A stretch of 17,216 nt of DNA from a virus. Each line of letters opens with the position of its first letter. The stretch's first letter is position 1. The DNA lies in IMG/VR virus record IMGVR_UViG_3300043172_001413, one strand, 5' to 3'. Under the pieces are notes generated by a model that was not told where the DNA came from, did not search any database, and saw only the letters and a list, made by a program, of their open reading frames with translations. The translations under genes and the position numbers were made by a program. Positions 1 through 14,200 of this stretch are shown piece by piece.

Positions 1-122
1 AGGCATTCAATAACTGCTTTTTTATATCCTATCTTTGCCCTTGACAGAAGTCCGAGATGTTTGTTTCTGTTCTCCTTCAATTTTTGAAGAAGCTCTGTTT
101 TTTTAACTGTGACGCTATTCAT
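1..122 (-). CDS. Hypothetical protein, N-terminal part only (MNSVTVKKTELLQKLKENRNKHLGLL...); continues past window start
   Basis: ATG at 122..120 overlaps the TGA stop of the upstream gene (ATGA coupling); AAAAGGAGGTAAA Shine-Dalgarno sequence immediately upstream on the minus strand; open to the window edge. Confidence 0.4.
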   Translation of the reverse strand, partial: MNSVTVKKTELLQKLKENRNKHLGLLSRAKIGYKKAVIEC

Positions 123-427
123 TTTACCTCCTTTTTAACAGCTTTACTTAACAATGCTATTTCTCCTATGAGTTCCAGTAAATCTGAATCGTTAATAGGA
201 GACTCCAAAGTTTTATAGAGAGTCCGGTTTTTATCATTTTTAGCCCTTTTACGGTCACAAGCAAAAATATATATCCAGTTTTTATCTTGATATGTTTGAA
301 TTCTAAGGATATCCTGACCAGGCCAATTTTTAGCTTTTTTACGAGCATCAGCAGGAACATATGTTATACGAAGTTCATTTATTTCTACATAAAGATTACC
401 TGCACTATCTTTTTGAGCAAATTCCAT
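119..427 (-). CDS. Hypothetical protein, 102 aa
   Basis: ORF in a compact co-directional minus-strand gene string; no family recognised. Confidence 0.45.
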   Translation of the reverse strand: MEFAQKDSAGNLYVEINELRITYVPADARKKAKNWPGQDILRIQTYQDKNWIYIFACDRKRAKNDKNRTLYKTLESPINDSDLLELIGEIALLSKAVKKEVK

Positions 428-455
428 GACATACTCCTAAATGTTCAATTCTTTT

Positions 456-665
456 TTAGATTTCATCCAGTGTTTTAGAAGCCTCTTCCAGTGCTTTTGA
501 GGCGTGAGACAGAGTCTCTGAAGCTTTTGCCATAGCTTTATTTATTTTAAGTGCTTCAGGGCTATTAGAATCTATATGTTTATTATTTAAAATATAGATC
601 TGTTTAACAGTCGTAATGTCTCTTAAAGGCTTTAAAATAAAATCAATAAATTTCTTTAATATCAT
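456..665 (-). CDS. Hypothetical small helical protein, 69 aa
   Basis: ATG preceded by TTAAGGAGACATT (SD) on the minus strand; tightly spaced behind the preceding gene. Confidence 0.45.
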   Translation of the reverse strand: MILKKFIDFILKPLRDITTVKQIYILNNKHIDSNSPEALKINKAMAKASETLSHASKALEEASKTLDEI

Positions 666-675
666 AAATGTCTCC

Positions 676-1074
676 TTAATCTATATCGAATTCATCAGGA
701 CTGCCACAATCCGGGCATTTAGCAATGCCTTTTTTGTAATCTTTTTTGAAAGCTTTATCTGTCCACCACTTCTGGCGTTTGAATCTCCAGAAGATATTTT
801 TAAATTCTCTCCATGCCAGCCACCAGGAATGAGGATCTATTCTGCATTTATTTTCTTTTGCCCAGTTGCTGTCGAGTTTTATTCTACGGGGAAACCAGTA
901 TCCTTTATACTCAAACATGCGGGATAAGAAGACAGAAAAGGGATTGTAGGACCAGCCGAAGAGTTTTATGGGGCCTATCTTGAAAGTAAAATAGCCGGAT
1001 TTTCCGAAACTGAAGTTCCACCAATCGTCCTGGCTCCAGTTGCATCCTTTTGTATGACAGTGGAGATAAGCCAT
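676..1074 (-). CDS. Hypothetical Trp/Cys-rich protein, 132 aa, with CHTKGC (N-terminal) and CPDCG (C-terminal) pairs suggesting a zinc ribbon
   Basis: ORF with 12 Trp and two Cys pairs; co-oriented operon position. Confidence 0.5.
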   Translation of the reverse strand: MAYLHCHTKGCNWSQDDWWNFSFGKSGYFTFKIGPIKLFGWSYNPFSVFLSRMFEYKGYWFPRRIKLDSNWAKENKCRIDPHSWWLAWREFKNIFWRFKRQKWWTDKAFKKDYKKGIAKCPDCGSPDEFDID

Positions 1075-1244
1075 TAATCTTCTTCCTTTTTTATAGTAAA
1101 GATACCTTCTATGTCTTTTTTGAAAGCTTTCAACTGAGTTACAGACCCATTAGTTATTTGCCAACGAGCCCGTGCCTCAGAACTCGTCGGCTATCGTTTA
1201 CGTTTACACTTTCGCTTACACTTCATAAATAGCCTCTTTTTTAG

Positions 1245-1601
1245 CTACCAGCCTCTAGCTGGTGGAGATTCTCGTCCTCGCCATGTCGGACTATCGTCGT
1301 CTCCAGATATATAATACCCATCAGAATGAGATCGAGTCAGATCTTTGCAACTATCAGCAATCACAAAAATAATCACCAAAATTCCAAATAAAATCATTAT
1401 GATGGTTAGCGTTGATTCATTGAATACTTCGTCAGTTTTGAATCTTATCCAGTCTATTACTGATCCACCGACTAAAAATAAGATTAAGATGACGAAAACC
1501 CAGAATATAAACTCAATCTTTAGATTTCTTGCTAGAAAGTACAACATAACGAAGATGCCTCCACACAACACTACACCCAGAAGCCAAACTAGTCTCTTCA
1601 T
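1245..1601 (-). CDS. Small membrane protein (2-3 predicted TM helices)
   Basis: Long hydrophobic stretches (LVWLLGVVLCGGIFVMLYFL, IFWVFVILILFLVGG, IIMILFGILVIIFVI); the C-terminal tail may be an over-extension. Confidence 0.4.
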   Translation of the reverse strand: MKRLVWLLGVVLCGGIFVMLYFLARNLKIEFIFWVFVILILFLVGGSVIDWIRFKTDEVFNESTLTIIMILFGILVIIFVIADSCKDLTRSHSDGYYISGDDDSPTWRGRESPPARGW

Positions 1602-1643
1602 CAGCTCACTCTCTTTTCAAGTTCAAAAAGCTGATCTTCACAT

Positions 1644-1925
1644 TTAATCTTCTTCTTTTTTTATCGTCATGGTTCCTTTAACTGCATCAGGAAGACCTTG
1701 AGGGCTGATTGAAATTTCCGTTTGCTGCCAGCTCACGGAATATTTAGTCTCTTCATCCTCATCGAGAAAGTCATCTGTGTCATCTTCATTGTCGTCAACG
1801 TTGGCACTAAAACCACTGGGCCAGCCCCTCCACCAGACTGATAAAAAGAACATTGACGCTAATATAAGGAAGGTTATTAAAAAAGGATGAGTTTCAAAGT
1901 GCTCTAATAGAAGTTCTACGTCCAT
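1644..1925 (-). CDS. Small membrane protein with one TM helix and an acidic (D/E-rich) segment
   Basis: FLITFLILASMFFLSVWW TM segment followed by DDNEDDTDDFLDEDEE; overlaps the 73-aa gene by 32 nt, so the true start may be further downstream. Confidence 0.4.
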   Translation of the reverse strand: MDVELLLEHFETHPFLITFLILASMFFLSVWWRGWPSGFSANVDDNEDDTDDFLDEDEETKYSVSWQQTEISISPQGLPDAVKGTMTIKKEED

Positions 1926-2115
1926 TATTTTTTATTTCCTTTTTTACTAATGTTATGATTCCTCTGGCTGCAGGAATCCAGTTAAGCAAGGATTTTGCTA
2001 TATATTCACTGCGTTTCATACCGGCTACTTTTCTTCTTTTCTCCTGTGTGCCGGCCCAGTACTGTGTAGCGAGTATTCGAGCTATTCTTTTTTCTAATTC
2101 AAATTCTTTAGACAT
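1894..2115 (-). CDS. Small basic helical protein, 73 aa, translationally coupled to the E1 gene
   Basis: ATG at 2115 overlaps the E1 stop (2108) by 8 nt; Lys/Arg-rich. Confidence 0.35.
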   Translation of the reverse strand: MSKEFELEKRIARILATQYWAGTQEKRRKVAGMKRSEYIAKSLLNWIPAARGIITLVKKEIKNNGRRTSIRAL

Positions 2116-2755
2116 GAAATTCGTTAATTTTCAGATCCTTGAGAGTGATAAAGTAATTCTTTTTTGTACCATCGTTAAGATATTTAATTATAGTCTCAGA
2201 AGCAACCGCTACTGATAAAAGAATCACATTTCGGGCCAGCGGGTACTCACAAACATCGAGACCCTTCGGTTCCCCCGGTACCGTGTAAAATTCGTTCCAG
2301 ATAACTTCCGCGTAGTCTTTAAATAGCCCTACGTGCAGACAATCCAATTGATTTTCTTTACAATAATTATATAGTAACCCACGACTCTTTGATTCATCAA
2401 AAGAATCAATAACAATCTCGAAATTGGGCTTCTTTAAAATCTTTCCTATATTGTTTTCGGAGAGTTCTTTTGGTAATGAATTGAGAATAGTACCGGTTGA
2501 ATTATATATTTTTGTTTTCATTCTCTCAGTTTTTAAACCGCCAACATCAAGACGGTCCCATATTTGGGTGCCTTTATTGTGGTCTTCGACGCGGTCTTTA
2601 TCGACAGTAGATAGAGTTTTAAAGCCCTGCCGCGCCATATTATCGATGAGATTTGAACCAATGGCACCACATCCAGCAAACATTATACGTACCGCAGCCA
2701 TTTTCGTTAATAGTTTTTCCGTCCGGTATTCCTGTTCATGAGTGAATAAATCCAT
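2108..2755 (-). CDS. Minimal E1-like ThiF/MoeB-family adenylyltransferase (ubiquitin-activating-like)
   Basis: Rossmann nucleotide motif VRIMFAGCGAIGSNLIDNMARQGF followed by TLSTVDKDRVEDHNKGTQ, matching the ThiF/MoeB GxGxxG...D.D.VE.sN..RQ pattern; candidate catalytic Cys in LDVCEYP; sits 3 nt downstream of the JAB gene. Confidence 0.75.
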   Translation of the reverse strand: MDLFTHEQEYRTEKLLTKMAAVRIMFAGCGAIGSNLIDNMARQGFKTLSTVDKDRVEDHNKGTQIWDRLDVGGLKTERMKTKIYNSTGTILNSLPKELSENNIGKILKKPNFEIVIDSFDESKSRGLLYNYCKENQLDCLHVGLFKDYAEVIWNEFYTVPGEPKGLDVCEYPLARNVILLSVAVASETIIKYLNDGTKKNYFITLKDLKINEFHV

Positions 2756-2758
2756 AGT

Positions 2759-3157
2759 TTATCCGATCTTTATTCTGATGAAATGCCCTATTTTTTTGAA
2801 TGATACTTCATGGCATTCTACTTTTTTTTCTACTCTTCCGTAGATATACATTTTTTGTCTACCATTACCTTCTATACCGCATATGAGCGGTTTGCCCAAA
2901 GCTTTGACCCAACCTATCATTGTTGTGTCATCGATAGCAGACGGTGAAGGAGAGCCTCCTGGATGAGTATGGCTAAATCCTAAAATTTTTTTAGCATTTC
3001 GGACAACTTTTTTCCAGTTAAAATCAACGGAACCAGGATTACCCTCGGATTCATAAATAAAAACACCATATAGATATTCTCCCCATTTATATCCATAGAT
3101 GATCCAGCAATTTTCATTGAAAATTCTGTCTATCAATTTATCCGCCCTGTCTATCAA
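2759..3157 (-). CDS. JAB/MPN (JAMM) metalloprotease, 132 aa
   Basis: Exact JAMM signature E...FSHTHPGGSPSPSAIDD (HxHx7Sx2D) with the upstream Glu in VFIYESEGN; the annotated start is a TTG preceded by AAGGCGG. Confidence 0.8.
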   Translation of the reverse strand: MIDRADKLIDRIFNENCWIIYGYKWGEYLYGVFIYESEGNPGSVDFNWKKVVRNAKKILGFSHTHPGGSPSPSAIDDTTMIGWVKALGKPLICGIEGNGRQKMYIYGRVEKKVECHEVSFKKIGHFIRIKIG

Positions 3158-3167
3158 TTTATCCGCC
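3126..3167. repeat. Perfect 21-nt tandem duplication (ctgtctatcaatttatccgcc x2) covering the SD/start region of the JAB gene
   Basis: Direct repeat read in the sequence; on the minus strand it duplicates GGCGGATAAATTGATAGACAG, i.e. RBS-like GGCGG plus TTG start plus IDR codons. Confidence 0.7.
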
Positions 3168-3283
3168 TTGTTTCAGTAAAATGAGAATAACAGCTATGAA
3201 TAGTAAAATGATAAAGGGTAAAACCCTATTTTTAGAAAGAGTAAAAACAACAAAAAATAAGGTGTCTTTAAAAATATTTTTCT

Positions 3284-4144
3284 TCATAATGCCCTGCTTA
3301 TCTGGCCGGACCGCTGCCCTTCTTGAATAACAGAGATGAGACTCTTTAAATCAAAATCTTTATCACCCTCTCTGCCTGTGCCATGGTCAGTCAGACATAT
3401 CCCAGCAGTTATAACCCAATGTGCCGGATCTTTGGAAATAACTGAGTTGAATGTGTGCCCGTCTACTTCATAGGTAACAAAGAGATGGTCTGAGCGTTCC
3501 TTGCTTTCTATAAATTTTCCACCGGCATATTCTACGTCTCTCTGTATGTTTCCTTTTTTCTTTTCATCAGCAATTTTTTTATCAAGTTTATATTTAATGC
3601 TGTAAGCAATTTTTTCCTCAAGGGTTAAGCCGAAATGTTTTATCCTTCCCGGTGTTCTCAATTTTTTTATGGATTCCCTGAGGTAATCCGTCCGGATCGG
3701 ATCACCTGACATGTCTATGGAATCAAACCACAGGTTTGCACCGTCATATCTGCATATGCATTTAGCGAAGTCCTCTGCTGTATCGTCGAACAGGAATATC
3801 GGCAATAAATCGTTAACTTTGAAGTTCCAGTTATTGCTTTTCATGGGGACTCCGAAATACGCTTTCTTTTTCTTAAACACCAAAATCAGTCGTACTTTAG
3901 GTAAAAAGTTAAGATACCTCTGAATTTTATCTATGTCTGCGGGTGAGGTAACTTTTGCCCTTTTGTTATTGATAGCTTTAAAAGAATACCAACCCGGATC
4001 GGTTTTCGGTATCTCAAGACGGTAGATAATACCTTCGATCCGGGTGATGATCTCTCGATTATAAAAGATGGGAGAGATGATTTCCTTTTCAGTTATCATC
4101 TCCTCCTGCACTCCTATTCTATCAATTGTATCAAGAATGTTCAT
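3284..4144 (-). CDS. 286-aa protein whose C-terminus resembles a UBC/E2 active site (HWVITAGICLTDH versus E2 HPNI...G.ICLD); N-terminal ~200 aa unassigned
   Basis: ATG overlaps the stop of the upstream vWA gene (ATGA); motif similarity only, with a short tail after the Cys, so the E2 assignment is tentative. Confidence 0.5.
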   Translation of the reverse strand: MNILDTIDRIGVQEEMITEKEIISPIFYNREIITRIEGIIYRLEIPKTDPGWYSFKAINNKRAKVTSPADIDKIQRYLNFLPKVRLILVFKKKKAYFGVPMKSNNWNFKVNDLLPIFLFDDTAEDFAKCICRYDGANLWFDSIDMSGDPIRTDYLRESIKKLRTPGRIKHFGLTLEEKIAYSIKYKLDKKIADEKKKGNIQRDVEYAGGKFIESKERSDHLFVTYEVDGHTFNSVISKDPAHWVITAGICLTDHGTGREGDKDFDLKSLISVIQEGQRSGQISRAL

Positions 4145-5715
4145 GCTGCTTTTTTCTTTTTGCCGAAGTCTTTTCTCTTGGGAAGTGGTGTGTCCATGAT
4201 CTCATATAGAAGATCAAGTTTTGACTTCCGTGATAGTAAAGGTATAAGACCAGGTAATGCATAATAATCATCACCTTCAGGCTCGTAATAATCAAATGCA
4301 ATTTTAGCCAGTTTTAAACTCTGGCTGAGTTTTTTATTACCCCAATTAGTCTTCATGTATATAATGGTAATAGTAGGAGTAATGTTGTGCCTCAGTTCAT
4401 ACTTTTTAAAGGTATCAGCGAACCAAGGATCAGTATTCTCATCTTCATCAGTGATAATAACGATTTGTTCAACACAACGCCCTTTTCTCATAAGGAAATC
4501 CAAAGCTGAGCCAATGGATGTTCCGCCGTGAGCGTGCAACGGTTTGAAAGCTCTCTCCCAGGCAGACATACCAGTTTCGCCTTCTTCTGCAACAATCTCA
4601 CGCGCTGCTGTATCGAAAGCCACTACAATTAAATTAGCTTCAGTGGCTCCTGAGACGAGAGAAGAGACGCTTTTACCCACTTCGAGAGCTGTTTGCATAG
4701 ACCCACTTTTGTCGATAAAGATGGCAGTATCAACTTTTATGACACCTCTTTTCTTTATTTGGGTGTCTGCAATTTCCTCCAGAATTTTGACACTATTCTC
4801 ATCCTTGACTCTACCGGTTTTTACTGCTTGTTTTGACTTCAATGCAGAGACACTCTTTGATTTCTTTGCCTTTTCGAGTTTCTCTGTAATGAGTTTTTTG
4901 GTGTCCTCATTTTTCATCGCACCTTTTTCTTCAAGAGAAGCATAGTTGTTTATAACTTCCTGAGGAGACATGGCATTGATCAGAGCAACCAGAATTGATG
5001 GAGTAACTTTCTCAACCAATCCAACAGCGACGGTGTAAGGAATTTTGTTCTCTACAATCAGTCGTGCAACTTTTGCAGGGCTTTTCGTATCTGCTATCTG
5101 CTGAAAAACATTAAGCTTGCTGTCTTCAGGGTATTTGCTCTTGAAGAGAATCTCTTCAGCACGGTTGCTTGGTGCAATATGAAGAGTTGCATAGAGCCCT
5201 TTCAGATCATTTTTGTTTCTGATAACAATTGAATCAAAGATATCAGTTTCGGTTTCAATGTAATTTAAGAAAGCTCTGATATCATTTCTGAAAGATGTCG
5301 GTATATTCTTGAAGAGGCCTACAGTTTTTTCCTCTATAGTTATTTCATCGACTTTTCTCTTGCCTTTGAGAATTTTCTTCCCTGTTTTCCTTCTCAGCTT
5401 TATTTTCTTTCCTTTAACAAAGCCGACAACTTTCCTTTTCAGGAATGTAGGTAGATCTCTGAATAGAGCAAGACCAACTTCACGGTTTTCATGGTACGTA
5501 TCACATACAAGCGCTCCTACGAACACTTCTTTATGATCGCGTATATCTCCATTTTTGAAATACCATGCCGCCAGATGTGAGTAAAAGACTGGGTCGATTT
5601 TTTGCAGTTCCAGGTGCACATCTTTGAGTTTGTCAGTATCCCGGTGAGGGCAGCTTAAAAAGGAATTCAACATTCCGACTCTGACATCCTGTTCGTTTTC
5701 TCTAACTCTGTTCAT
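4141..5715 (-). CDS. 524-aa protein with a C-terminal von Willebrand factor A (vWA, MIDAS) domain, an alpha-helical N-terminal half and a lysine-rich basic linker; architecture resembles Ro60/Rsr (TROVE + vWA)
   Basis: MIDAS motif AIFIDKSGSMQ...(T)...VIITDEDEN; basic stretch KGKKIKLRRKTGKKILKGKRK; AAWYFKNG resembles Ro60 ADWYNEKG but the motifs are not colinear with Ro60, so TROVE is unproven; strong GGAGG SD. Confidence 0.8.
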   Translation of the reverse strand: MNRVRENEQDVRVGMLNSFLSCPHRDTDKLKDVHLELQKIDPVFYSHLAAWYFKNGDIRDHKEVFVGALVCDTYHENREVGLALFRDLPTFLKRKVVGFVKGKKIKLRRKTGKKILKGKRKVDEITIEEKTVGLFKNIPTSFRNDIRAFLNYIETETDIFDSIVIRNKNDLKGLYATLHIAPSNRAEEILFKSKYPEDSKLNVFQQIADTKSPAKVARLIVENKIPYTVAVGLVEKVTPSILVALINAMSPQEVINNYASLEEKGAMKNEDTKKLITEKLEKAKKSKSVSALKSKQAVKTGRVKDENSVKILEEIADTQIKKRGVIKVDTAIFIDKSGSMQTALEVGKSVSSLVSGATEANLIVVAFDTAAREIVAEEGETGMSAWERAFKPLHAHGGTSIGSALDFLMRKGRCVEQIVIITDEDENTDPWFADTFKKYELRHNITPTITIIYMKTNWGNKKLSQSLKLAKIAFDYYEPEGDDYYALPGLIPLLSRKSKLDLLYEIMDTPLPKRKDFGKKKKAA

Positions 5716-5747: not shown

Positions 5748-6005
5748 TCAGGTACCGAAAGTCGCATTCGGTCTTACAGTAATATCACCTGACTTGTGGA
5801 ACTCAACAATCAGTTCGTTGAATTCATCTACCGGCTTGTCGAAATGATTTGCCAGGGCTCTTTTGATCTGGTCTCCGTTCAGATCTTTTGACTGAAGCTC
5901 AGCATCGTCTTCGATACCAAGACCAGCTCTGTCATCCACTGGGATAAGATCATCAAGATCAATATCCTCAGTTCTGCCATCATAAACGATGTGTACAGCG
6001 TCCAT
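5748..6005 (-). CDS. Small acidic protein with a beta-grasp-like N-terminus (candidate ubiquitin-like modifier), first gene of the operon; ends ...ATFGT
   Basis: MDAVHIVYDGRTEDIDL resembles the first beta-hairpin of ubiquitin (MQIFVKTLTGKTITLEV); AGGAGGAG SD; lies upstream of E2-like, JAB and E1 genes as in Ubl-E2-JAB-E1 operons; single C-terminal Gly followed by Thr. Confidence 0.45.
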   Translation of the reverse strand: MDAVHIVYDGRTEDIDLDDLIPVDDRAGLGIEDDAELQSKDLNGDQIKRALANHFDKPVDEFNELIVEFHKSGDITVRPNATFGT

Positions 6006-6043
6006 TATGACTCCTCCTGTTAAAGTAAAAAGTGTCCTCAGTT

Positions 6044-6074
6044 TATTATACCCATTTTCAACTGAGATTGTTCA
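6044..6074 (-). promoter_or_regulatory. Candidate sigma70-type promoter for the minus-strand operon (-35 TTGAAC, 19-nt spacer, -10 TATAAT)
   Basis: Minus-strand TATAAT at 6049..6044 and TTGAAC at 6074..6069; the spacer is 2 nt longer than optimal. Confidence 0.3.
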
Positions 6075-6194
6075 AGAAAATCACACTTTATTAATGATAC
6101 TGGTTTTTAGCTGTTAATTTAAACTAAAAAATGGTAATAATATAATTTTTTTCTGGGTCAAAGTAAAAAAAAATTAAAATAGTGAAAATAAGTG

Positions 6195-6223
6195 TTGACA
6201 GAACTTCTTTTTAGTGGTATATT
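6195..6223 (+). promoter_or_regulatory. Strong sigma70-type promoter: TTGACA, 17 nt, TG-n-TATATT (extended -10)
   Basis: TTGACA 6195..6200, spacer gaacttctttttagtgg, TATATT 6218..6223 with TG at 6215..6216; drives the plus-strand RNA cluster. Confidence 0.6.
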
Positions 6224-6258
6224 ATTCTTCGTAGAGTCTCTGCGCCCAAATTTATCGG

Positions 6259-6266
6259 GCGTACAT
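6259..6266 (+). promoter_or_regulatory. GCNTACAT motif copy A (gcgTACAT), 2 nt before tRNA-Val
   Basis: One of seven copies of (G)GCNTACAT-W, each immediately 5' of an RNA gene. Confidence 0.4.
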
Positions 6267-6268
6267 TT

Positions 6269-6343
6269 GAAGATATAGCTCAGTGGTAGAGCGATCATTT
6301 TACAGATGATAAGTCCCTGGCTCGAAACCAGGTTTCTTCACCA
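6269..6343 (+). tRNA. tRNA-Val (anticodon UAC), encoded CCA
   Basis: Cloverleaf folded by eye: acceptor GAAGATA/TTTCTTC (one T.T mismatch), D-arm GCTC-AGTGGTA-GAGC, anticodon stem ATCAT/ATGAT with loop TTTACAG, 5-nt variable loop, T-arm CCTGG-CTCGAAA-CCAGG (unusual C54), discriminator A, CCA. Confidence 0.75.
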
Positions 6344-6407
6344 AATCAGCACGATTAACTTGCGCAGGACTTTCTTTGAAATTATAGCAGAAAACCTAAC
6401 GGTAGAT

Positions 6408-6415
6408 GCTTACAT
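6408..6415 (+). promoter_or_regulatory. GCNTACAT motif copy B (gctTACAT)
   Basis: Motif copy preceding structured RNA B. Confidence 0.35.
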
Positions 6416-6524
6416 AACGTGAAGTCGAAAGACTTCCAGCCCCTCCACCTGCTCACAATCGGTAAGTGAGTTAGTGGTGGGGCTGGATTATCCCGGTTCG
6501 CCGGGAAGCACCTCAAACTTTTTT
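6416..6524 (+). ncRNA. Structured ncRNA B (~110 nt): GAAA-tetraloop hairpin, 12-bp GC-rich stem enclosing an inner hairpin, UUCG-tetraloop hairpin, then T6; boundaries approximate
   Basis: GAAGTC-GAAA-GACTTC (6421..6436); CCAGCCCCtCCAC/GTGGtGGGGCTGG (6436..6448 with 6474..6486) around CTCAC-AATCGGTAA-GTGAG; TCCCGG-TTCG-CCGGGA (6491..6506); T-run 6519..6524. Confidence 0.45.
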
Positions 6525-6567
6525 CTGCTTATTATAAATCGTAAATGGGCAACATCAGACATTGAGG

Positions 6568-6575
6568 GCTTACAT
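6568..6575 (+). promoter_or_regulatory. GCNTACAT motif copy C (gctTACAT)
   Basis: Motif copy preceding structured RNA C. Confidence 0.35.
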
Positions 6576-6671
6576 TAATTTTTAGGAATTAATCGTCCCC
6601 TGTAGAGTCAGGGGGCAAACCTCGGGGAAACCCGGGGAAAGCACTTAAGACTTGGTTGCTCATTTTTTTTT
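6576..6671 (+). ncRNA. Structured ncRNA C (~95 nt) ending in a T9 run: CCCCTG-TAGAGT-CAGGGG hairpin and a 7-bp GAAA-tetraloop hairpin; probable end of the first transcription unit
   Basis: Hairpins at 6597..6614 and 6620..6637; T9 at 6663..6671 preceded by only a weak AGCA/TGCT stem; boundaries approximate. Confidence 0.4.
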
Positions 6672-6676
6672 GGTCT

Positions 6677-6704
6677 TTGAAATTTTAATGTCACAACCTA
6701 ATTT
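6677..6704 (+). promoter_or_regulatory. Candidate promoter for tRNA-like D: -35 TTGAAA, 16 nt, -10 TAATTT; predicted start at the GCGTACAT motif
   Basis: TTGAAA 6677..6682; TAATTT 6699..6704; the -10 ends exactly 8 nt before TACAT, the same geometry as units E and F. Confidence 0.35.
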
Positions 6705-6709
6705 TTAAT

Positions 6710-6717
6710 GCGTACAT
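6710..6717 (+). promoter_or_regulatory. GCNTACAT motif copy D (gcgTACAT), abutting tRNA-like D
   Basis: The last T of TACAT is position 1 of the tRNA-like gene. Confidence 0.4.
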
Positions 6718-6790
6718 TATCGATAGCTCAGTGTAGAGCGCAAGAACGCTAATCTTGATGTCGTAGGCTCGAAACCTACTCGATGAACCA
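6717..6790 (+). tRNA. tRNA-like gene (74 nt with CCA) with an atypical anticodon loop ACGCUAA (C33; nominal anticodon GCU) and a short variable loop; identity and function uncertain
   Basis: Acceptor TTATCGA/TCGATGA (one G.U), D-arm GCTC-AGTGTA-GAGC, anticodon stem CAAGA/TCTTG, variable loop ATGTC, T-arm GTAGG-CTCGAAA-CCTAC (C54 again), discriminator A + CCA; a GCU anticodon without a long variable arm is not a normal tRNA-Ser. Confidence 0.6.
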
Positions 6791-6877
6791 AACAAAGCAT
6801 TTTCAACTTTTGTGACATTTATTATAAAATTTGTTCTTTGAAAAATGGGATCTGATATTTTTAATTGGCACATTTCC

Positions 6878-6896
6878 TAACTTTGGGAGCCTACAT
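6878..6896 (+). promoter_or_regulatory. -10-like TAACTT (6878..6883) plus GCNTACAT motif copy E (gccTACAT, 6889..6896)
   Basis: Same 8-nt gap between the -10-like hexamer and TACAT as in units D and F; no -35 at optimal spacing (TTGAAA lies 34 nt upstream). Confidence 0.3.
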
Positions 6897-7007
6897 TAGT
6901 TAATTTGGAGGTTCAATTCCTCCTCCCGGCACCACAAGTGCTTGATTTTCAAGTGCTTCTGATGCCGGGATGGCCAAATTGGTAAAGGCGACTGTCTTCA
7001 GAACAGT
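6897..7007 (+). ncRNA. Circularly permuted tRNA-like module: T-arm, acceptor 3' strand, ACCA, 29-nt linker hairpin, acceptor 5' strand, D-arm, complete anticodon arm with UCA
   Basis: GGAGG-TTCAATT-CCTCC (6907..6923), TCCCGGC-A-CCA (6924..6934), linker CAAGTGCTTGATTTTCAAGTGCTTCTGAT (imperfect inverted repeat), GCCGGGA (6964..6970, perfect complement of 6924..6930), TG, GCC-AAATTGGTAAA-GGC, G, ACTGT-CTTCAGA-ACAGT (6991..7007; U33, anticodon UCA, R37). Confidence 0.5.
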
Positions 7008-7067
7008 TTTAAAAAACTTGTTAACCTGCTCTTTTAACTTGAATGTGTCAATTTAAAATATCGGTCT

Positions 7068-7095
7068 TTGAAAAAAAAGGCATTTCACCTAATCT
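7068..7095 (+). promoter_or_regulatory. Candidate promoter for RNA F: -35 TTGAAA, 16 nt, -10 TAATCT
   Basis: TTGAAA 7068..7073; TAATCT 7090..7095; 8 nt upstream of TACAT (7104), matching the unit D geometry. Confidence 0.35.
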
Positions 7096-7100
7096 TTGGA

Positions 7101-7108
7101 GCCTACAT
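7101..7108 (+). promoter_or_regulatory. GCNTACAT motif copy F (gccTACAT)
   Basis: Motif copy preceding structured RNA F. Confidence 0.35.
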
Positions 7109-7227
7109 AAAAAATTCCGGTTCGACTCCGGGTTTCCCCGCCTGACAGACTTTAATAGGTCTACCAGGCGGGGAAACTAGCCGTGTGGATGGCATCAGAT
7201 AGTGAATCTGACAAAATAAATTTTTGT
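7109..7227 (+). ncRNA. Structured ncRNA F: T-arm-like hairpin (TCCGG-TTCGACT-CCGGG) followed by a perfect 13-bp hairpin and a 6-bp hairpin; 3' boundary uncertain
   Basis: 7116..7132 T-arm-like with canonical TTCGANT loop; GTTTCCCCGCCTG (7132..7144) / CAGGCGGGGAAAC (7165..7177) perfect inverted repeat with inner AGAC/GTCT; TCAGAT-AGTGA-ATCTGA 7195..7210. Confidence 0.3.
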
Positions 7228-7258
7228 TACTGCTCTTTTAACTTTGAAATGCTCTTTT

Positions 7259-7266
7259 AAATACAT
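7259..7266 (+). promoter_or_regulatory. Degenerate motif copy G (aaaTACAT)
   Basis: TACAT conserved but the upstream GC is replaced; precedes the last structured segment. Confidence 0.25.
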
Positions 7267-7392
7267 AGGATTGGGTGGTTACTCACCGAGTAATCTTTAT
7301 TTGGTTTGCCCAGCCCTCTCCTCAGAGTTACCTAGTTGGGCAATTAGCCGTAAGCCGGGAAGATTTTTCTTTAACTTCCCGGCTTATTTTTT
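7267..7392 (+). ncRNA. Structured RNA segment G (hairpins GGTTACTC-ACC-GAGTAATC and TTGCCCA...TGGGCAA) ending in the cluster terminator
   Basis: Inverted repeats read in the sequence; may be a 3' UTR-like tail of the F transcript rather than a separate RNA. Confidence 0.3.
7352..7392 (+). terminator. Rho-independent terminator: perfect 11-bp stem AAGCCGGGAAG/CTTCCCGGCTT, 12-nt loop, then ATTTTTT
   Basis: Inverted repeat 7352..7362 / 7375..7385 followed by T6 at 7387..7392; closes the RNA cluster 13 nt before the next CDS. Confidence 0.7.
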
Positions 7393-7404
7393 GTACCATT
7401 AAAT

Positions 7405-10050
7405 ATGAAATGTCCTATCTGTGGTAATTCCTATTTCTCTGATTTCTTGAAATGCCCCGCCTATAAAATCTGTCTCATCTGTAATTTATGCTGCCAAGAA
7501 ACTTTACCGGAAAAAGTATATGAAGGACTGGAAGAAAATGATGGGAAAGGTCCCGGTACAGGCCATGAAATGTCAAATGAAGAAAAATCTATTAATACAA
7601 ATCTCGCTAATTCCCTCTATCATATGTATCTTCCCCGGACTGTCCTGGATATCGGATCCAAATATCCTATTTTTCTCCATACTTTAAAAGACCGTGCAGA
7701 AGTACTGGGAATTGACGGTATCCCTGAAATTATTAAATATGGTGAGGAACTCGGTGTCCCGGTTATTAACACTGACTTTGAATCCATAGACATTACACCA
7801 TATAAGAATAAATTTGACCTGATAACCGTCATACATACCTTTGAGCATTTTTATAATCCATTTGAGACTCTAAAAAAGATTTTGGAGTGTCTGAGTTCTC
7901 GGGGAGTTCTCTATATGCGTATCCCGAATATGGACGTATCAGGCATTGACCGGGATTTTACTAAGCATCATTTAACGATCCACCCCTTTATTTATTCCAC
8001 GCAAGCTATGTATATGTTGAGTGAAAAACTGGGTTATGAGATATTCAGGATTGATGACCAGGGAGGGTACGGGCAGAGTGATTTTTTCTTCAGGAAAAGA
8101 AAGGATAAATTCACCCTTTCAGTATGTATGATTGTGAAAAATGAAGAAAAGAATATAACTGATTGTCTTGAGAGTATTAAAGACGTGGCAGATGAATTTG
8201 TGATCGTTGATACTGGATCTACGGATAGAACGAAAGAGGTGGTCTCAAAATACACCTCTAACATCTATGATTTCAAATGGATAGATGATTTTTCTGCTGC
8301 CCGGAATTTTTCTTTGAGTAAGGCTACCGGTGATTTTGTGCTCTGGCTCGATGCAGATGATATTGTAGAGAATCCAGAAGCTATTTTACCCTTGCTGAAG
8401 GAAAGTTTTGATGCCCATGATTTCAATATTATATATGGGAATGATAATTTCAGCCAGGCACGGTTGTTCCGAAATTTCAGAAATATCCGTTTTGCCGGCC
8501 GCGTGCATGAATACCCTGTGTTGGATGGTCTGTTTTTAGAGATTCAAACGGATTTACCCACACCACAACGGGTTATTTCTCATCAGCGGGAGACAAGAGT
8601 AAATGTGTATCATAAGACAGAGAAACACAGTACTGAGGACAGGTCAGAGAGAAACTACCGCATTTTAAAAAAAGAATTGGAAGAGGATCCAGATAATTCA
8701 CGGACTCTCTTTTATCTGGGTAACGTTTTGAAAGAATTAAAAAGTTATGATGAAGCTATTGAAACATACCGGAAATATCTGAAGGTTTCAACTTGGGTTG
8801 ATGAGAAATGGATGGCTCAAAAATATATAGGCTGTATACTTCTATGGCAGGGATATTATAAAGAAGCGATAGAGGAATTTAAAGGGGCTATTGAGATAGA
8901 TAATAGATGGGCAGAATCCTATTATTATATAGGGGAATGTCTTTTTTTATTAAAAGATTACGATGGATGTATTGATTGGATGTTGAAAGCTGTGGAGAAA
9001 AAGCCCCCTTTCTCACCCCTGTGGAAAGAAACATCTGTTTATCAGGATGCACCCTATCGTTATATTTTTGCTGTCTATGATGTAAAAGGAGATTACAAGA
9101 AAGCTATTCATTATTGTAAGAGAGCCTGCGAGAAAAAACCCGGGAATGAATGGCTTGAAGGCAGGTTATTACACTTTGAAAGTCTTCTTGGGGGCGATTT
9201 ACGCGTAATAGAGTGTTTCAGGCAGGGAGCACTGGGAGACTGTTTAATGACAACTGCAGCTCTGCGAGGTCTGAAAGAGAAAGATCCTGGATGTTTTATT
9301 CGATATGTAACGCATCCTCATAGTATGCAAATTCTTGAAGGTAATAAATATATCGATGAATTGGTTTCAGAATCAAAAGAAGAACATGCGCAGAAGATTT
9401 ACTTTTCCTATCCGGACAAGGACTCTCCGTTGGAGGATGAAGGGTATCCTGATAAACCTTTGAGCAGGCATTTGATAAAAATTTTCAATGAATGTGCTGG
9501 GTTACCTGATAATAGTATGGAAATGGAGTGTACTCTTTCTGAGAAAGAGGAAAATGTGGGTCGATCATTACGCCGTCAGTATAAGAAATATTTAACATTG
9601 CATGTTAAATCTGGATGGTCCGCTTATAAAGATTGGTATAATGACCGGTGGAGACTTGTTGTTGAAAAATTATTTCAAAGAGGTTATGTGACCGTACAAA
9701 TAGGTCACAAGGAGGATTTTTTATTAAGAAATACTGTTGATTTCCGGGGTCATACGATAAAAGAAGTTTTGTCTGCTATTAAATATGCTGATGTTCACAT
9801 GGGTATTGATAGTTTCACTAATCATGTTTCTGCGACGTTTTTTGCCCCTTCAGTGATTTTATTTGGTAGTACTTCACCTATAGGGTCAGGTTATGACCAG
9901 AACATAAATATTTACAAGGACTTGCCGTGTCAGCCCTGTTATCGGGAATATAAAAGTAAAGATCCGTGTCCATGTGGGAAGAAATGTATGAGTTTGATCA
10001 CGGTTGATGAGGTTCTGAAGAGCGTTATTAAACTTCTGGAAGAAAGATGA
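7405..10050 (+). CDS. 881-aa multidomain enzyme: N-terminal Cys-rich zinc ribbon, class I SAM methyltransferase, GT2 glycosyltransferase, TPR repeats, C-terminal GT9 (heptosyltransferase-like) glycosyltransferase
   Basis: CPICG...CPAYKICLICNLCC; VLDIGSK...FDLITVIHTFEHFYNP (methyltransferase motifs); LSVCMIVKNEE...VIVDTGSTD...WLDADD (GT2 DxD); TPR-like helices in the YLGNVLKELKSYDEAIETYRKYL region; GALGDCLMTT...HMGIDSFTNHVSATFFAPSVILFGSTSP (GT9 signature). Confidence 0.85.
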   Translation: MKCPICGNSYFSDFLKCPAYKICLICNLCCQETLPEKVYEGLEENDGKGPGTGHEMSNEEKSINTNLANSLYHMYLPRTVLDIGSKYPIFLHTLKDRAEVLGIDGIPEIIKYGEELGVPVINTDFESIDITPYKNKFDLITVIHTFEHFYNPFETLKKILECLSSRGVLYMRIPNMDVSGIDRDFTKHHLTIHPFIYSTQAMYMLSEKLGYEIFRIDDQGGYGQSDFFFRKRKDKFTLSVCMIVKNEEKNITDCLESIKDVADEFVIVDTGSTDRTKEVVSKYTSNIYDFKWIDDFSAARNFSLSKATGDFVLWLDADDIVENPEAILPLLKESFDAHDFNIIYGNDNFSQARLFRNFRNIRFAGRVHEYPVLDGLFLEIQTDLPTPQRVISHQRETRVNVYHKTEKHSTEDRSERNYRILKKELEEDPDNSRTLFYLGNVLKELKSYDEAIETYRKYLKVSTWVDEKWMAQKYIGCILLWQGYYKEAIEEFKGAIEIDNRWAESYYYIGECLFLLKDYDGCIDWMLKAVEKKPPFSPLWKETSVYQDAPYRYIFAVYDVKGDYKKAIHYCKRACEKKPGNEWLEGRLLHFESLLGGDLRVIECFRQGALGDCLMTTAALRGLKEKDPGCFIRYVTHPHSMQILEGNKYIDELVSESKEEHAQKIYFSYPDKDSPLEDEGYPDKPLSRHLIKIFNECAGLPDNSMEMECTLSEKEENVGRSLRRQYKKYLTLHVKSGWSAYKDWYNDRWRLVVEKLFQRGYVTVQIGHKEDFLLRNTVDFRGHTIKEVLSAIKYADVHMGIDSFTNHVSATFFAPSVILFGSTSPIGSGYDQNINIYKDLPCQPCYREYKSKDPCPCGKKCMSLITVDEVLKSVIKLLEER

Positions 10051-11207: not shown

Positions 11208-14200
11208 ATGTCAAAGACCAAAAGAAAATGGATCTGTGGTGTTGGTGATTTACCTGATACCACTCAGAATTACAACGCTTTTCAAGCCTTACGTGCAGAA
11301 GACATTCCATACGATCCGACTCTAAGTATTAAAGATGCTATAGAATCTGGGCTGACCGGTGTTCAGGGGCCCACTGGAGCCACGGGTACTGGTATCCAGG
11401 GCGAGACAGGAGTCGCGGGTATTTATGGAGAAACGGGTGTACAGGGTCAAACTGGAATAGGAATTCAGGGAGAAACAGGTGTTGAAGGAATACAAGGTCA
11501 AACCGGAGCTTCGGGTGGTGGAGAAACAGGAATTCAGGGAGAAACAGGTGTTGAAGGAATACAAGGTCAAACCGGAGCTTCGGGTGGTGGAGAAACAGGG
11601 ATTCAGGGAGAAACAGGTGTTCAAGGAATTGCCGGACAAACCGGAGCTCTGGGGGGTGGAGACACAGGAGTCCAGGGCGAAACGGGTATCCAGGGAATTG
11701 CCGGACAAACTGGTGCGGGTATCCAGGGTCAGACGGGTGCTGGTATCCAGGGTCAAACAGGTATTCAAGGAGAGACTGGTGCTGGTACTCAGGGCGAAAC
11801 GGGTATCCAGGGAACGCAGGGTTCACAGGGCGAAACGGGTATTCAGGGCTATACAGGAGTCCAGGGAGAGACAGGAGTTCAGGGAACACAGGGAGAGACA
11901 GGAGTTCAGGGAACACAGGGCGAGACAGGAGTTCAGGGTGAGACCGGTACTGGTATCCAGGGAGAAACGGGTGTCGCTGGAGTAGCAGGAGAGACAGGAG
12001 TTCAGGGAGATCAGGGCGAGACAGGAGTAGCAGGAGTCGCAGGAGAGACGGGTGTCCAGGGAACACAGGGAGAGACAGGAGTACAGGGTCAGACGGGTGC
12101 TGGTATCCAGGGCGAGACAGGAGTTCAGGGAACACAGGGCGAGACAGGAGTTCAGGGTGAGACCGGTACTGGTATCCAGGGCGAAACGGGTGTCCAGGGA
12201 ACACAGGGCGAGACAGGAGTTCAGGGTGAGACCGGTACTGGTATTCAGGGCGAGACAGGAGTTCAGGGAGATCAGGGAGAGACAGGAGTACAGGGTGAGA
12301 TAGGTGAAACGGGTGTCCAAGGTGATATTGGTCCTCAAGGTCCAAGAGGAGACCAGGGGGAGACCGGAGTCCAGGGAATTCAAGGTATCCAAGGAACTAC
12401 AGGGGTCCAAGGTATCCAGGGTGTCACCGGGGTTCAGGGAGAAACAGGAATCCAGGGAACCCAGGGTAATCAAGGTGAAACAGGAGTTGAAGGTATACAG
12501 GGAGACACAGGTATAGCAGGTGTAGCTGGTGTCACGGGGACCCAAGGCTCACAGGGAGTAACAGGAGTTGAGGGTACACAGGGAGACACAGGTGCAGGTC
12601 TTCAAGGTGTTACGGGTATCCAAGGGATCCAAGGCCAGACAGGTGTACAGGGAGAGACCGGTATAGAGGGTGAAACTGGAATAGAGGGCTCTCAGTTTGT
12701 CGGTTTTATGTATAATGCTTTAACAAATAGTCAATCGGATACAGATCCAGGGACAGGGAAATTAAAATGGAGTACTGTTGGTCAGACAAATGCTGCTGAA
12801 TTATATGTAGATGATGAGGATAAAAACTCTATAGATTATAGTTCACTTTATATCACTTTAAAAAATAGTGATGTTATTCGTGTCCAGCGTCAGGAAAATC
12901 CCAAACAATTTCAAATTTTTAAAATAGATGCTGTTGTTGATAGAACAGGATGGTTTCGTTTTGAAGTTTCTTTTATTGTAAGTGGAGGTTCTGTTTTTAG
13001 TCTTAATGATAATCTTATTTTGATTTTTGAGATTTCTGGACCGCAGGGAGAGACAGGAGTAGCAGGAGAGACAGGAGTTCAGGGAGACACAGGTGTAGCA
13101 GGTGTAGCGGGGGAGACCGGAGTCCAGGGAGTTCAGGGTATCCAGGGTAATCAGGGCGAGACAGGAGTTCAGGGAGACACAGGAGCGGGAGTAGCCGGAG
13201 AGACAGGAGTTCAGGGAGACACAGGTATAGGTGTAGCGGGGGAGACCGGAGTCCAGGGAGTTCAGGGAGAGACAGGAGTAGCAGGAGAGACAGGAGTTCA
13301 GGGGACTCAGGGAGAGACAGGAGTACAGGGTCAGACGGGTGCTGGTATCCAGGGGGAGACCGGAGTTCAGGGAACACAAGGAGAGACTGGTTCTCAGGGT
13401 CAGACGGGTGCTGGTATCCAGGGCGAGACAGGAGTTCAGGGGACTCAGGGAGAGACTGGTTCTCAGGGTCAGACTGGTGCTGGTATCCAGGGCGAGACAG
13501 GAGTTCAGGGTACACAGGGAGAGACAGGTTCTCAGGGTCAGACTGGTGCTGGTATCCAGGGAGAGACAGGAGTTCAGGGTACACAGGGAGAGACAGGTTC
13601 TCAGGGTCAGACGGGTGCTGGTATCCAGGGAGAGACAGGAATTCAGGGTCAGACGGGTATTCAAGGAGTCACGGGAGAAACTGGAGTCGGTATCCAGGGA
13701 GAGACAGGAGTTCAGGGAACACAGGGAGAGACAGGAGTCCAGGGTCAGACTGGTGCTGGTATCCAGGGAGAAACAGGAATTCAGGGAACACAGGGAGTAA
13801 CAGGAGCTGGGATTCAAGGAGAGACAGGAGTTCAGGGAGCACAGGGCGATACAGGAGTTCAGGGAGCACAGGGCGAGACAGGAGTTCAGGGTCAGACGGG
13901 CGAGACAGGAGTTCAGGGCGAGACAGGAGTCGCGGGTGTAGCAGGAGAGACAGGAGTTGCGGGTATTCAGGGAGAGACCGGAAGTCAGGGTCAGACGGGT
14001 GTTCAGGGAGACACAGGTATAGCAGGTATAGCGGGGGAGACCGGAGTCCAGGGTAATCAGGGTATCCAGGGTAATCAGGGAGAGACAGGAGTTCAGGGTA
14101 CACAGGGAGAGACAGGTTCTCAGGGTCAGACGGGTGCTGGTATCCAGGGAGAGACAGGAATTCAGGGTCAGACGGGTATTCAAGGAGTCACGGGTATCCA

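Follow-up and report, generated by a model that had tools for sequence, protein, structure and literature searches.

What are the structured RNAs encoded between two tRNA genes of a huge phage, and do they serve the von Willebrand factor A (vWA) protein encoded beside them? This question is raised by a stretch of 17,216 nucleotides (nt), hereafter called the window, which comes from IMG/VR record IMGVR_UViG_3300043172_001413 and is numbered on its given strand. A sequence-only reading of the window had picked out two RNAs, RNA B and RNA C, and had offered three roles for them: Y-RNA-like partners of the vWA protein, phage small RNAs (sRNAs) or processing scaffolds. Our analysis revealed that B and C are real, conserved, structured non-coding RNAs of the plus strand, and that their flanks form a module, here called the socket, which recurs in four further RNA units of the same cluster. 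The vWA protein, 524 amino acids (aa) long, resembles Ro60 in its predicted fold. We consider it rather probable that B and C are non-tRNA-like, Y-RNA-like members of a six-unit array that serves a divergent Ro60 ribonucleoprotein (RNP) of the huge phage.

Structure and conservation of RNAs B and C

All of the hairpins that had been listed for B and C are present at the positions assigned to them (Table 1). In hairpin 2 of RNA B, a 12-bp stem with one U.U mismatch (CAGCCCCUCCAC/GUGGUGGGGCUG, 6437-6448 with 6474-6485) encloses the CUCAC/GUGAG hairpin (6452-6456 with 6466-6470), and the CCCCUG/CAGGGG pairing in hairpin H1 of RNA C extends to 8 bp (6595-6602 with 6609-6616). Hairpin H0 of RNA C and the long-range closing helices of both units had been overlooked. 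The hairpin regions on the plus strand gave z scores of -6.1 (B) and -3.4 (C), with none of 200 shuffled sequences folding as well, and the minus strand of RNA C was unremarkable (z = -1.5). The full units fold with -63.3 kcal/mol (B; z = -6.9) and -52.6 kcal/mol (C; z = -6.5). In B, the outer helix P1 pairs 6386-6394 with 6521-6529 and the inner helix P2 pairs approximately 6405-6411 with 6507-6514; in C, P1 pairs 6543-6553 with 6655-6665. P1, the loop between the two helices and P2 were all found in both the minimum free energy (MFE) and the centroid folds of B and C. The cargo carried by these helices consists in each RNA of three hairpins, which form a cloverleaf-like four-way junction with P2, the linkers being 0-1, 0-2 and 4-5 nt long.

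These folds change the boundaries of the two RNAs. The limits implied by the sequence-only reading, 6416-6524 for B and about 6560-6671 for C, do not hold; both units are larger and are closed by the long-range helix P1. The runs of T that had been taken as simple ends or terminators are part of this helix: the T6 run (6519-6524) lies within the 3' socket of RNA B, and the first three bases of the T9 run (6663-6671) belong to P1 of RNA C, leaving six U free. Neither run directly follows a local hairpin, as had been supposed; each instead contributes to the 3' strand of the closing helix or adjoins it.

Homologs of the 524-aa protein at 68-80% identity led to syntenic intergenic clusters, and a scan of one metagenome added 80 further loci with 41-80% protein identity. 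An identical neighbour protein was found on contigs of up to 512 kb; two loci (L001 and L002) carry an identical RNA region and are therefore useless for covariation analysis. RNA B is conserved in five distinct sequences (the window, L003, L005, L007 and L070; 74-122 bits), and its strict homologs are restricted to one clade. RNA C is conserved in four close sequences (80-90 bits). Weaker relatives sharing the architecture of C (socket, AU-rich H0 and GC-rich hairpins) occur at L119, L079, L102, L087, L082, L089, L104 and L127, and this architecture is retained where the Ro60-like protein is only about 55-60% identical. A blastn search with the RNA cluster against phage records gave no match, and a protein-based scan of IMG/VR found no relatives. 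The 54 single matches obtained when the DNA of IMG/VR was scanned for the socket pattern were rejected as chance matches; they fall in coding sequence and lack both a second unit and the 3' motif.

The helices of both RNAs have been maintained by compensatory changes in these homologs. In the five sequences of RNA B, 90.2% of the alignment cells are paired and nine pairs have changed on both sides; none of 500 shuffles reached any of four measures, and partners slid out of register were paired in 34-47%. The corresponding values for six sequences of RNA C are 92.5% and 12 double-changed pairs, with none of 500 shuffles as good and slid partners paired in 37-58%. In both RNAs, each helix has undergone a double change in one pair or more, and P1 of RNA B has a 5' strand that differs among the homologs with its pairing retained. 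Together with the shuffling results, this bears out the proposal that B and C are evolved structured RNAs rather than random spacer. The tetraloops that had been cited in its favour fared unevenly: the UUCG loop of hairpin 3 in B is present in all four homologs that have this hairpin, and the loop of H2 in C is a GNRA loop in three of the four close homologs, whereas the GAAA loop of hairpin 1 in B is not conserved. With only two of the three conserved, the tetraloops carry less weight as evidence than had been claimed.

ARAGORN and Rfam together placed tRNAs only at 6269-6343 and 6717-6787, in agreement with the earlier view that B and C are not tRNAs. Neither RNA shows a T-loop or D-loop signature, tetraloops occupying the D-like and T-like positions. 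The Rfam scan suggested at the same time gave no family for either RNA: in a scan of 6000-9000 with Rfam 15, nothing matched 6380-6680 at E <= 10 or at the gathering threshold.

The common socket, the six-unit array and the Ro60-like neighbour

One socket is common to all six units of the cluster, namely two tRNAs, two circularly permuted tRNA-like RNAs, B and C. Its 5' part consists of a variable strand, CCUAAC, a short strand ending in GC and an invariant YUACAU, which is followed by the cargo; the 3' part, after the cargo, consists of a strand starting with RGC, six nt, AACUU and a strand complementary to the first one. P1 and P2 are separated by the internal loop CCUAAC//AACUU, and P2 is followed by an invariant single-stranded GCYUACAU. 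The loop motif varies slightly within the array: CCUAAU is found in two units, CCAAAU before tRNA-Val and AUCAGACA before RNA C, which is followed by GACUU.

Pairing of the flanks was tested on units defined from the sequence motifs alone, avoiding circularity. Across 85 non-redundant units, P1 has 7.2 of its 8 flank positions paired; exchanging the 3' flanks among the units lowers this value to 4.80 +/- 0.12. At least seven of the eight are paired in 76% of the units (10% with exchanged flanks). P2 covaries round its invariant GC/GC core (173 units): the next position is UA in 69, GC in 23 and AU in 21 units, and the neighbouring positions are paired in 64-80% of the units versus 40-65% after shuffling. 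A census of 185 units identified 54 tRNAs called by ARAGORN, 30 permuted units (T arm, hairpin, D arm), 13 'empty' sockets, 8 D-to-T domains without an acceptor stem of their own, 8 units with a T loop only and 72 others, the last of which include B-type and C-type units and some false positives.

The socket is strongly associated with the Ro60-like gene. A loose scanner was applied to the 50 homologous loci for which 2 kb or more of upstream sequence was available (41-100% protein identity). It placed one or more socket units within 3 kb of the Ro60-like gene at 47 loci, and two or more at 43. The density of sockets is 1.29 per kb near the Ro60-like gene and 0.14 per kb elsewhere; with the strict motif, these values are 0.45 and 0.013 per kb. 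In the window, the distance from B and C to the start of the gene is 700-950 nt. L139 carries about 20 tightly packed ordinary tRNAs without socket, and only the two RNAs adjoining its Ro60-like gene are socketed. The socket is therefore not the generic tRNA-processing device of this lineage.

Database searches had not revealed the nature of the neighbour: Pfam detected no TROVE domain in the 524-aa protein and only a weak, sub-threshold match to VWA_2. An AlphaFold2 model built from 20 homologs (predicted local distance difference test score, 84; predicted template modelling score, 0.79) consists of an N-terminal helical-repeat ring and a C-terminal vWA domain. The top 13 Foldseek matches in the Protein Data Bank (PDB) are all of the Ro60 type and cover the full length (E = 1.5e-11 to 2.5e-8; TM score, 0.53-0.61); they include Ro60 of Xenopus laevis and human, Rsr of Deinococcus radiodurans and Ro60 of Thermus phage phiLo, and isolated vWA domains trail behind (E > 5e-5). 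When a profile of the family was compared with the PDB, the best sequence matches were TROVE domain chains (9kop and 9l5y), weak (E = 0.36) and collinear. The model thus identifies the neighbour as a previously unrecognised Ro60 (TROVE plus vWA) of a huge phage. In protein searches the family has more than 1000 members, which are invisible to Pfam TROVE. The replicon that hosts the gene is a huge phage, with contigs of about 0.4-0.6 Mb, and the single match in the phage genome collection was to the 595-kb genome of an uncultured phage (LR756511.1, locus L144; 42.5% identity). Some contigs of the lineage are labelled at the NCBI as metagenome-assembled genomes of Nanoarchaeia; these are probably mis-binned huge-phage contigs.

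Table 1. Coordinates of the array, its component elements and the neighbouring Ro60-like gene in the window
Feature	Position	Strand	Details and evidence
Ro60/Rsr-like protein, divergent, 524 aa	4141-5715	-	N-terminal helical-repeat ring and C-terminal vWA (AlphaFold2, Foldseek)
Sigma-70-type promoter	6195-6223	+	TTGACA-17-TATATT with TG; 11 of 12 matches; only consensus promoter in the cluster
Unit 1, tRNA-Val(UAC)	6232-6373	+	tRNA 6269-6343 with encoded CCA; P1 6233-6244/6363-6373
Unit of RNA B	about 6386-6529	+	Folding and homologs
RNA B, P1 5' strand	6386-6394	+	AGCAGAAAA; pairs with 6521-6529 in MFE and centroid folds
RNA B, 5' socket	6395-6415	+	CCUAAC loop motif 6395-6400; P2 5' strand 6405-6411; invariant GCUUACAU 6408-6415
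RNA B, hairpin 1	6421-6436	+	GAAGUC-GAAA-GACUUC, 6 bp; 3 of 5 pairs double-changed, 100% paired
RNA B, hairpin 2	6437-6485	+	GC-rich, U.U mismatch, internal loop, apical 5-bp hairpin; 5 pairs with compensatory changes
RNA B, hairpin 3	6491-6506	+	UCCCGG-UUCG-CCGGGA; GGUUCGCC conserved; C-G to U-A in L005
RNA B, 3' socket	6507-6529	+	P2 3' strand (AGCAC...); AACUU 6516-6520; P1 3' strand UUUUCUGCU 6521-6529
Unit of RNA C	about 6543-6665	+	Folding and homologs
RNA C, 5' socket	6543-6575	+	P1 5' strand AAAUGGGCAAC 6543-6553; loop AUCAGACA; P2 5' strand; GCUUACAU 6568-6575
RNA C, hairpin H0	6574-6593	+	AU-rich, 8 bp; abuts UACAU; also in C-type relatives at other loci
RNA C, hairpin H1	6595-6616	+	GUCCCCUG/CAGGGGGC; 5 of 6 pairs double-changed
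RNA C, hairpin H2	6620-6637	+	CCUCGGG-GAAA-CCCGGGG, 7 bp
RNA C, 3' socket	6639-6671	+	P2 3' strand; GACUU 6649-6653; P1 3' strand GUUGCUCAUUU 6655-6665; 6 unpaired U
Unit 4, atypical tRNA	6685-6819	+	tRNA 6717-6787 with encoded CCA; P1 AAUGUCACAA/UUGUGACAUU
Unit 5, permuted tRNA-like RNA	6854-7062	+	Cargo 6897-7021; 21-bp P1 6854-6874/7042-7062
Unit 6, second permuted tRNA-like RNA	7074-7258	+	Cargo 7109-7225
Canonical intrinsic terminator	7351-7392	+	12-bp stem and T6; ends the cluster

The first closing helix of the array starts about 10 nt downstream of the promoter. The presence of one promoter and one terminator makes a single polycistronic precursor likely, so that the array, judged from these signals, is probably transcribed as one RNA from 6195 to the terminator at 7351-7392. 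A sigma-70 promoter in front of each unit (UCUUUGAAA...UACAUU) was considered and rejected, because the spacings are wrong and the 5' strand of the covarying helix would precede the start site. The UCUUUGAAA spacer recurs at 6372-6380, 6673-6681, 6835-6843 and 7066-7074 and, in this clade, immediately precedes the 5' strand in most of the units; it is implausible as a -35 element for a -10 further downstream and may instead mark a site of cleavage. The segment between the last socket and the terminator (7262-7350) is also structured and conserved (GGAUUGGGUG, a hairpin and UCUUUAUUUGGUUUGCCCAGCCCUCUCC...) and is shared by L003; it has no socket 3' motif.

The remaining units of the array carry tRNAs or permuted tRNA-like domains. 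The tRNA of unit 4 scores 51 bits with Rfam and is not called by ARAGORN; its anticodon loop is ACGCUAA (C at position 33) with the anticodon GCU, a Ser anticodon without the long variable arm. The identity of the tRNA in the first slot varies among close relatives (Val, Gly, Glu or Leu). Many socketed tRNAs beside the Ro60-like genes at L071, L083, L089, L098, L108, L112, L114, L116 and other loci have unusual anticodons; in some, A is found at position 34 (AUC, AAU, AUU, AAC, AAG, ACA, AGA and AGG), and to others ARAGORN assigns 'anticodons' of 2 or 4 nt. In unit 5, a T arm (GGAGGUUCAAUUCCUCC) is followed by the acceptor 3' strand with ACCA, a closing hairpin and the acceptor 5' strand, which complete a 7-bp acceptor, and then by a D arm of the Leu type (class II; GCCAAAUUGGUAAAGGC) and an anticodon arm whose loop, CUUCAGA, is canonical (anticodon UCA); the unit ends at the variable-arm position, running on into the 21-bp helix. 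Cleavage by RNase P could convert it to a two-piece, CCA-ended tRNA. Relatives of this unit have other anticodon loops (UUA, GUA, AAA, UGA and GCU). Unit 6 consists of a T arm, a perfect acceptor-like hairpin of 13 bp that lacks CCA, a GG-containing D-like arm and a further hairpin with a loop of 5-7 nt, and is conserved in L003, L005, L007 and L009.

Some other loci show arrangements of their own. In L137 (about 4290-4400) and L138 (about 3690-3790 and about 6210-6310), the Ro60-like genes are preceded, 100-150 nt upstream, by 'empty' sockets whose cargo is just 20-27 nt long; L138 contains two tandem Ro60-like paralogs with one empty socket each. These may be autoregulatory sites or processing junctions. 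In LR756511.1 (region 1-4000), at least nine socket units precede the Ro60-like gene. They share one P1 sequence (GCGUCC...GGAUGC) and are joined as ACUU-GGAUGC-GAAA/GGAA-GCGUCC-CCNAC, forming a junction hairpin that competes with the bracketing helix and that is also found directly before the ribosome-binding site of the Ro60-like gene. In L007 (3424-4714, reverse; approximately 940-1030 of the intergenic region), two hairpin repeats of approximately 27 nt (AAUAUUCCCCACUYGUAUGGGGAU) lie between units, and L003 has a related CCCCCACACGGUGGGG hairpin; these resemble small mobile hairpin elements.

Between the array and the Ro60-like gene, an open reading frame (ORF) of approximately 85 aa (5748-6005, minus strand) is present in essentially all loci, including L083 and L144, and its product could be a partner in the RNP. 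Synteny is also conserved downstream of the Ro60-like gene (2108-4144, minus strand). A 286-aa protein encoded there gave nothing credible in a phmmer search of the PDB, and neither it nor the 85-aa and Ro60-like proteins belong to a family in PHROGs, NCBIfam or Pfam. The other products of this region resemble a JAB/JAMM isopeptidase (2759-3157; weak similarity to Cap3 and desampylase) and a ThiF/E1-like adenylyltransferase (2108-2755), and the genes may form a ubiquitin-like conjugation/deconjugation module. On the other side of the array, the plus strand encodes an 881-aa fusion of methyltransferase, GT2 glycosyltransferase, TPR and GT9 heptosyltransferase domains (7405-10050) and a 1230-aa protein composed largely of collagen triple-helix repeats (11208-14900).

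A proposed Y-RNA-like role and its alternatives

Of the three roles that had been proposed, that of Y-RNA-like partners of the vWA protein is the best, given the Ro60 fold of the neighbour, the stem module shared with YrlA-like units and the linkage at 47 of 50 loci. B and C lie within 2 kb of the Ro60 ortholog, and the folds of the predicted units show the end-pairing stem with an internal loop, in a size range of approximately 80-150 nt, that characterises Y RNAs. In each unit, the 5' and 3' flanks pair to form P1, the CCUAAC//AACUU loop and P2, leaving GCYUACAU single-stranded and the variable cargo on top. This stem-loop-stem layout is the same as that carrying the Ro60 site in known Y RNAs. 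In the proposed mechanism, the Ro60-like ring would bind this conserved module, most likely through its 5' strand at P2/GCYUACAU, the part that corresponds to the GNCGAA region in alignments with YrlA. The hairpins of the cargo may recruit other factors or mimic their substrates, for which host PNPase in RYPER (Ro60-Y RNA-PNPase) offers a precedent; in the sibling units, the place of these hairpins is taken by a tRNA or a permuted (YrlA-type) tRNA-like domain. P1 may in addition serve to excise the units from the precursor, so that the processing-scaffold role suggested for B and C may hold in part, for this outer helix. B and C may themselves descend from tRNA-like cargo, because their linkers are cloverleaf-like and hairpin 3 of B (GGUUCGCC) resembles a shortened T arm.

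The relationship to YrlA is visible in the permuted socket units of other loci. The YrlA model (RF02553) matches such units in L139 (42.9 bits, E = 3e-6), L142 (37.6 bits), L136 (36.5 and 34.7 bits), L137 (35.2 bits) and L119 (27.4 bits, E = 0.1), the E-values in L139, L142, L136 and L137 ranging from 3e-6 to 8e-4. Several of these alignments cover the whole model, and the 5' stem of YrlA with GNCGAA falls on P2/GCYUACAU; P1 and the CCUAAC//AACUU loop lie outside the model.

Several observations weigh against this assignment. The GNCGAAN0-1G (CGAA) motif is absent, RNA B having AACCUAACGG followed by GCUUACAU and RNA C AUCAGACA followed by GCUUACAU; a literal CCGAA occurs in one relative only, the C unit of L005. 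Neither Y_RNA nor YrlA of Rfam matches any unit of the window at E <= 10, and all YrlA matches in relatives are below the gathering score of 69 bits. The covariation comes from few sequences (five for B and six for C), and both alignments were fitted to the structure model. Genuine tRNAs with encoded CCA share the socket, which fits a processing cassette at least equally well, and the GNRA-joined units of LR756511.1 with their single P1 sequence resemble a repeated processing hairpin. Binding to the Ro60-like protein, expression as a single precursor, the mature ends and the function of the cargo are predictions; for this reason, and because GNCGAA is absent, our confidence in the Y-RNA-like reading is moderate.

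The tRNAs and the junction hairpins suggest a different explanation, which we regard as unlikely yet serious: the socket may be purely a precursor-processing cassette, cut for example by RNase III or a phage endonuclease at P1 and the loop, with B and C being stable sRNAs unrelated to Ro60, like species 1 and 2 of phage T4, and their linkage to the gene reflecting synteny only. Such a cassette would account for real CCA-bearing tRNAs in the same socket, for one promoter and one terminator, for the position of P1 and the loop outside the YrlA model and for the L144 hairpin (ACUU-GGAUGC-GNRA-GCGUCC-CCNAC) that stands between all units and before the start codon of the Ro60-like gene. However, the ordinary tRNA arrays of the lineage (L139 and L088) are without socket, the linkage of socket and Ro60-like gene persists across 41-100% protein identity, and the sibling units are YrlA-like. 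The cassette is, moreover, compatible with a Ro60 role, P1 serving excision and P2/GCYUACAU binding. The cloverleaf-like linkers, which recall the D/anticodon/variable/T layout, the resemblance of hairpin 3 in B to a T loop minus 3 nt and the restriction of strict B homologs to one clade could also be read as signs that B and C are functionless, decaying relics of tRNA or tRNA-like cargo, kept merely by the transcribed array. This is improbable, because every helix is maintained by compensatory substitutions, the C-type architecture persists at about 55-60% identity of the Ro60-like protein and the folds are far more stable than those of shuffled sequences.

It is very improbable that B and C are cis-acting terminators or attenuators ending at T6 and T9 rather than independent RNAs. 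T runs follow both units, and C has six free U right behind its closing helix; runs of T7-T9 after C are conserved in the close relatives L003 and L005 and in L119, and 29% of all units are followed by at least five T. The P1 helix of C that precedes the free U closes a multi-branch structure, and partial termination may occur there. However, a terminator scan calls neither site, and the last hairpin is separated from the T run by 13 and 26 nt. The T6 run pairs with an upstream A run within P1, the T run is missing in L009 and in most C-type relatives, and a conserved three-hairpin cargo would be superfluous for termination. The prospect that the region encodes small proteins is negligible. 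Eight ORFs of 20-60 aa overlap 6380-6700 on the two strands, those overlapping B and C being only 20-44 aa long, but there is no long ORF, substitutions in the helices are compensatory rather than codon-patterned, and loop lengths vary by indels. The earlier judgement that B and C are not plausibly coding is upheld by the same observations.

A wider form of the Y-RNA-like reading is that the Ro60-like ring and the universal socket constitute a modular 'plug-in' RNP, in which any socketed RNA becomes a Ro60 client. We put this forward as speculation that is quite unlikely to hold as stated. If it were true, the clients would comprise CCA tRNAs, YrlA-like mimics, the B and C modules and permuted class-II-type tRNAs in which the socket acts as a giant variable arm (anticodons including UCA and UUA), and the array could mature, protect or deliver tRNAs or tRNA decoys, a role beyond the tethering of an exonuclease. 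Examples would be two-piece, aminoacylatable tRNAs arising after RNase P cleavage, or the sponging of anticodon nucleases of the host and of defence proteins that bind tRNA; B and C, for their part, would mimic the shape of RNAs recognised by non-tRNA targets.

Comparison with known systems

The tRNA gene cluster of phage T4 yields the stable non-tRNA species 1 and 2 RNAs, small structured RNAs that are co-transcribed and co-processed with phage tRNAs, as B and C would be. T4 is not known to have a Ro60 gene or a shared socket. The order of elements in unit 5 (cargo 6897-7021), with a T arm, the acceptor 3' strand with CCA, a loop and the acceptor 5' strand, is like that of two-piece permuted tmRNAs and permuted tRNA genes. 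A permuted tmRNA was nevertheless rejected, because the score with the beta_tmRNA model (27.5 bits) is far short of the gathering score (84), a tag ORF is lacking and none of the ARAGORN calls is a tmRNA; the unit also has a full D arm and a full anticodon arm. Hammerhead, pistol, hatchet and HDV-like ribozymes were dismissed too, as neither their core motifs nor matches to Rfam were found, and so was the archaeal bulge-helix-bulge motif of splicing and circularisation, because the socket loop is symmetric (5x5) and both the promoter and the terminator follow the bacterial pattern.

The closest parallels are found among the Y RNAs. Those of bacteria and phages are encoded within 2 kb of rsr, and every species studied has two or more, of which one resembles tRNA (YrlA) and one does not (YrlB, Yrn2) (PMC4201824). 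In Mycobacterium smegmatis, both RNAs are released from a common precursor, and RNase P cuts YrlA, to which CCA is added (PMC4201824). Ro60 of Thermus phage phiLo binds two Y-like RNAs encoded upstream, in which a stem formed by the 5' and 3' ends flanks an internal bulge, and assembles with host PNPase (PMC12135203). Some jumbo phages have a ROT/TROVE protein, the cellular counterparts of which work with a tRNA-like partner RNA (PMC7824862).

Like the non-tRNA-like Y RNAs, namely YrlB of Salmonella Typhimurium and M. smegmatis, Yrn2 of D. radiodurans and Yrl1/Yrl2 of phiLo, B and C lie within 2 kb of a Ro60 ortholog; they also occur several per locus with a tRNA-like sibling, possibly in a single precursor, and their 5' and 3' ends pair as a long stem with an internal loop. 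They differ from these RNAs in having no GNCGAA or CGAA motif, in the place of which CCUAAC//AACUU and GCYUACAU are strictly conserved, in having a partner protein that is too divergent for Pfam TROVE and in occurring in loci of up to about eight units rather than two. The sibling units at 6854-7062 and 7074-7258 and their counterparts share with YrlA the order of T arm, acceptor-like hairpin and D arm, and the encoded CCA and 7-bp acceptor of the former are reminiscent of the RNase P-cut YrlA of M. smegmatis. B and C, in contrast, lack both the T arm and the D arm and give no match to the YrlA model, and the permuted units of the window add an anticodon-like arm to the YrlA plan.

Ro60 with adjacent Y RNAs is already known from bacteria and phages. 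What is new here is a Ro60 family that has been missed by domain databases and is widespread in huge phages, a socket with conserved motifs other than GNCGAA, arrays in which up to about eight units carry exchangeable cargo, real tRNAs included, and the cargo architectures of the B and C types, which represent two RNA families absent from Rfam. The Ro60/Y RNA systems of huge phages are thus under-annotated. These arrays bear on the modularity of Y RNAs and on their frequent mimicry of tRNA, and they provide a natural swap series in which one socket carries cargo ranging from real tRNAs via permuted domains to B and C. Because the socket motif differs from GNCGAA, this series could map the Ro60 site, and it could also reveal what each cargo recruits. 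B and C are thus most likely Y-RNA-like in their working and stand outside YrlA and every curated family.

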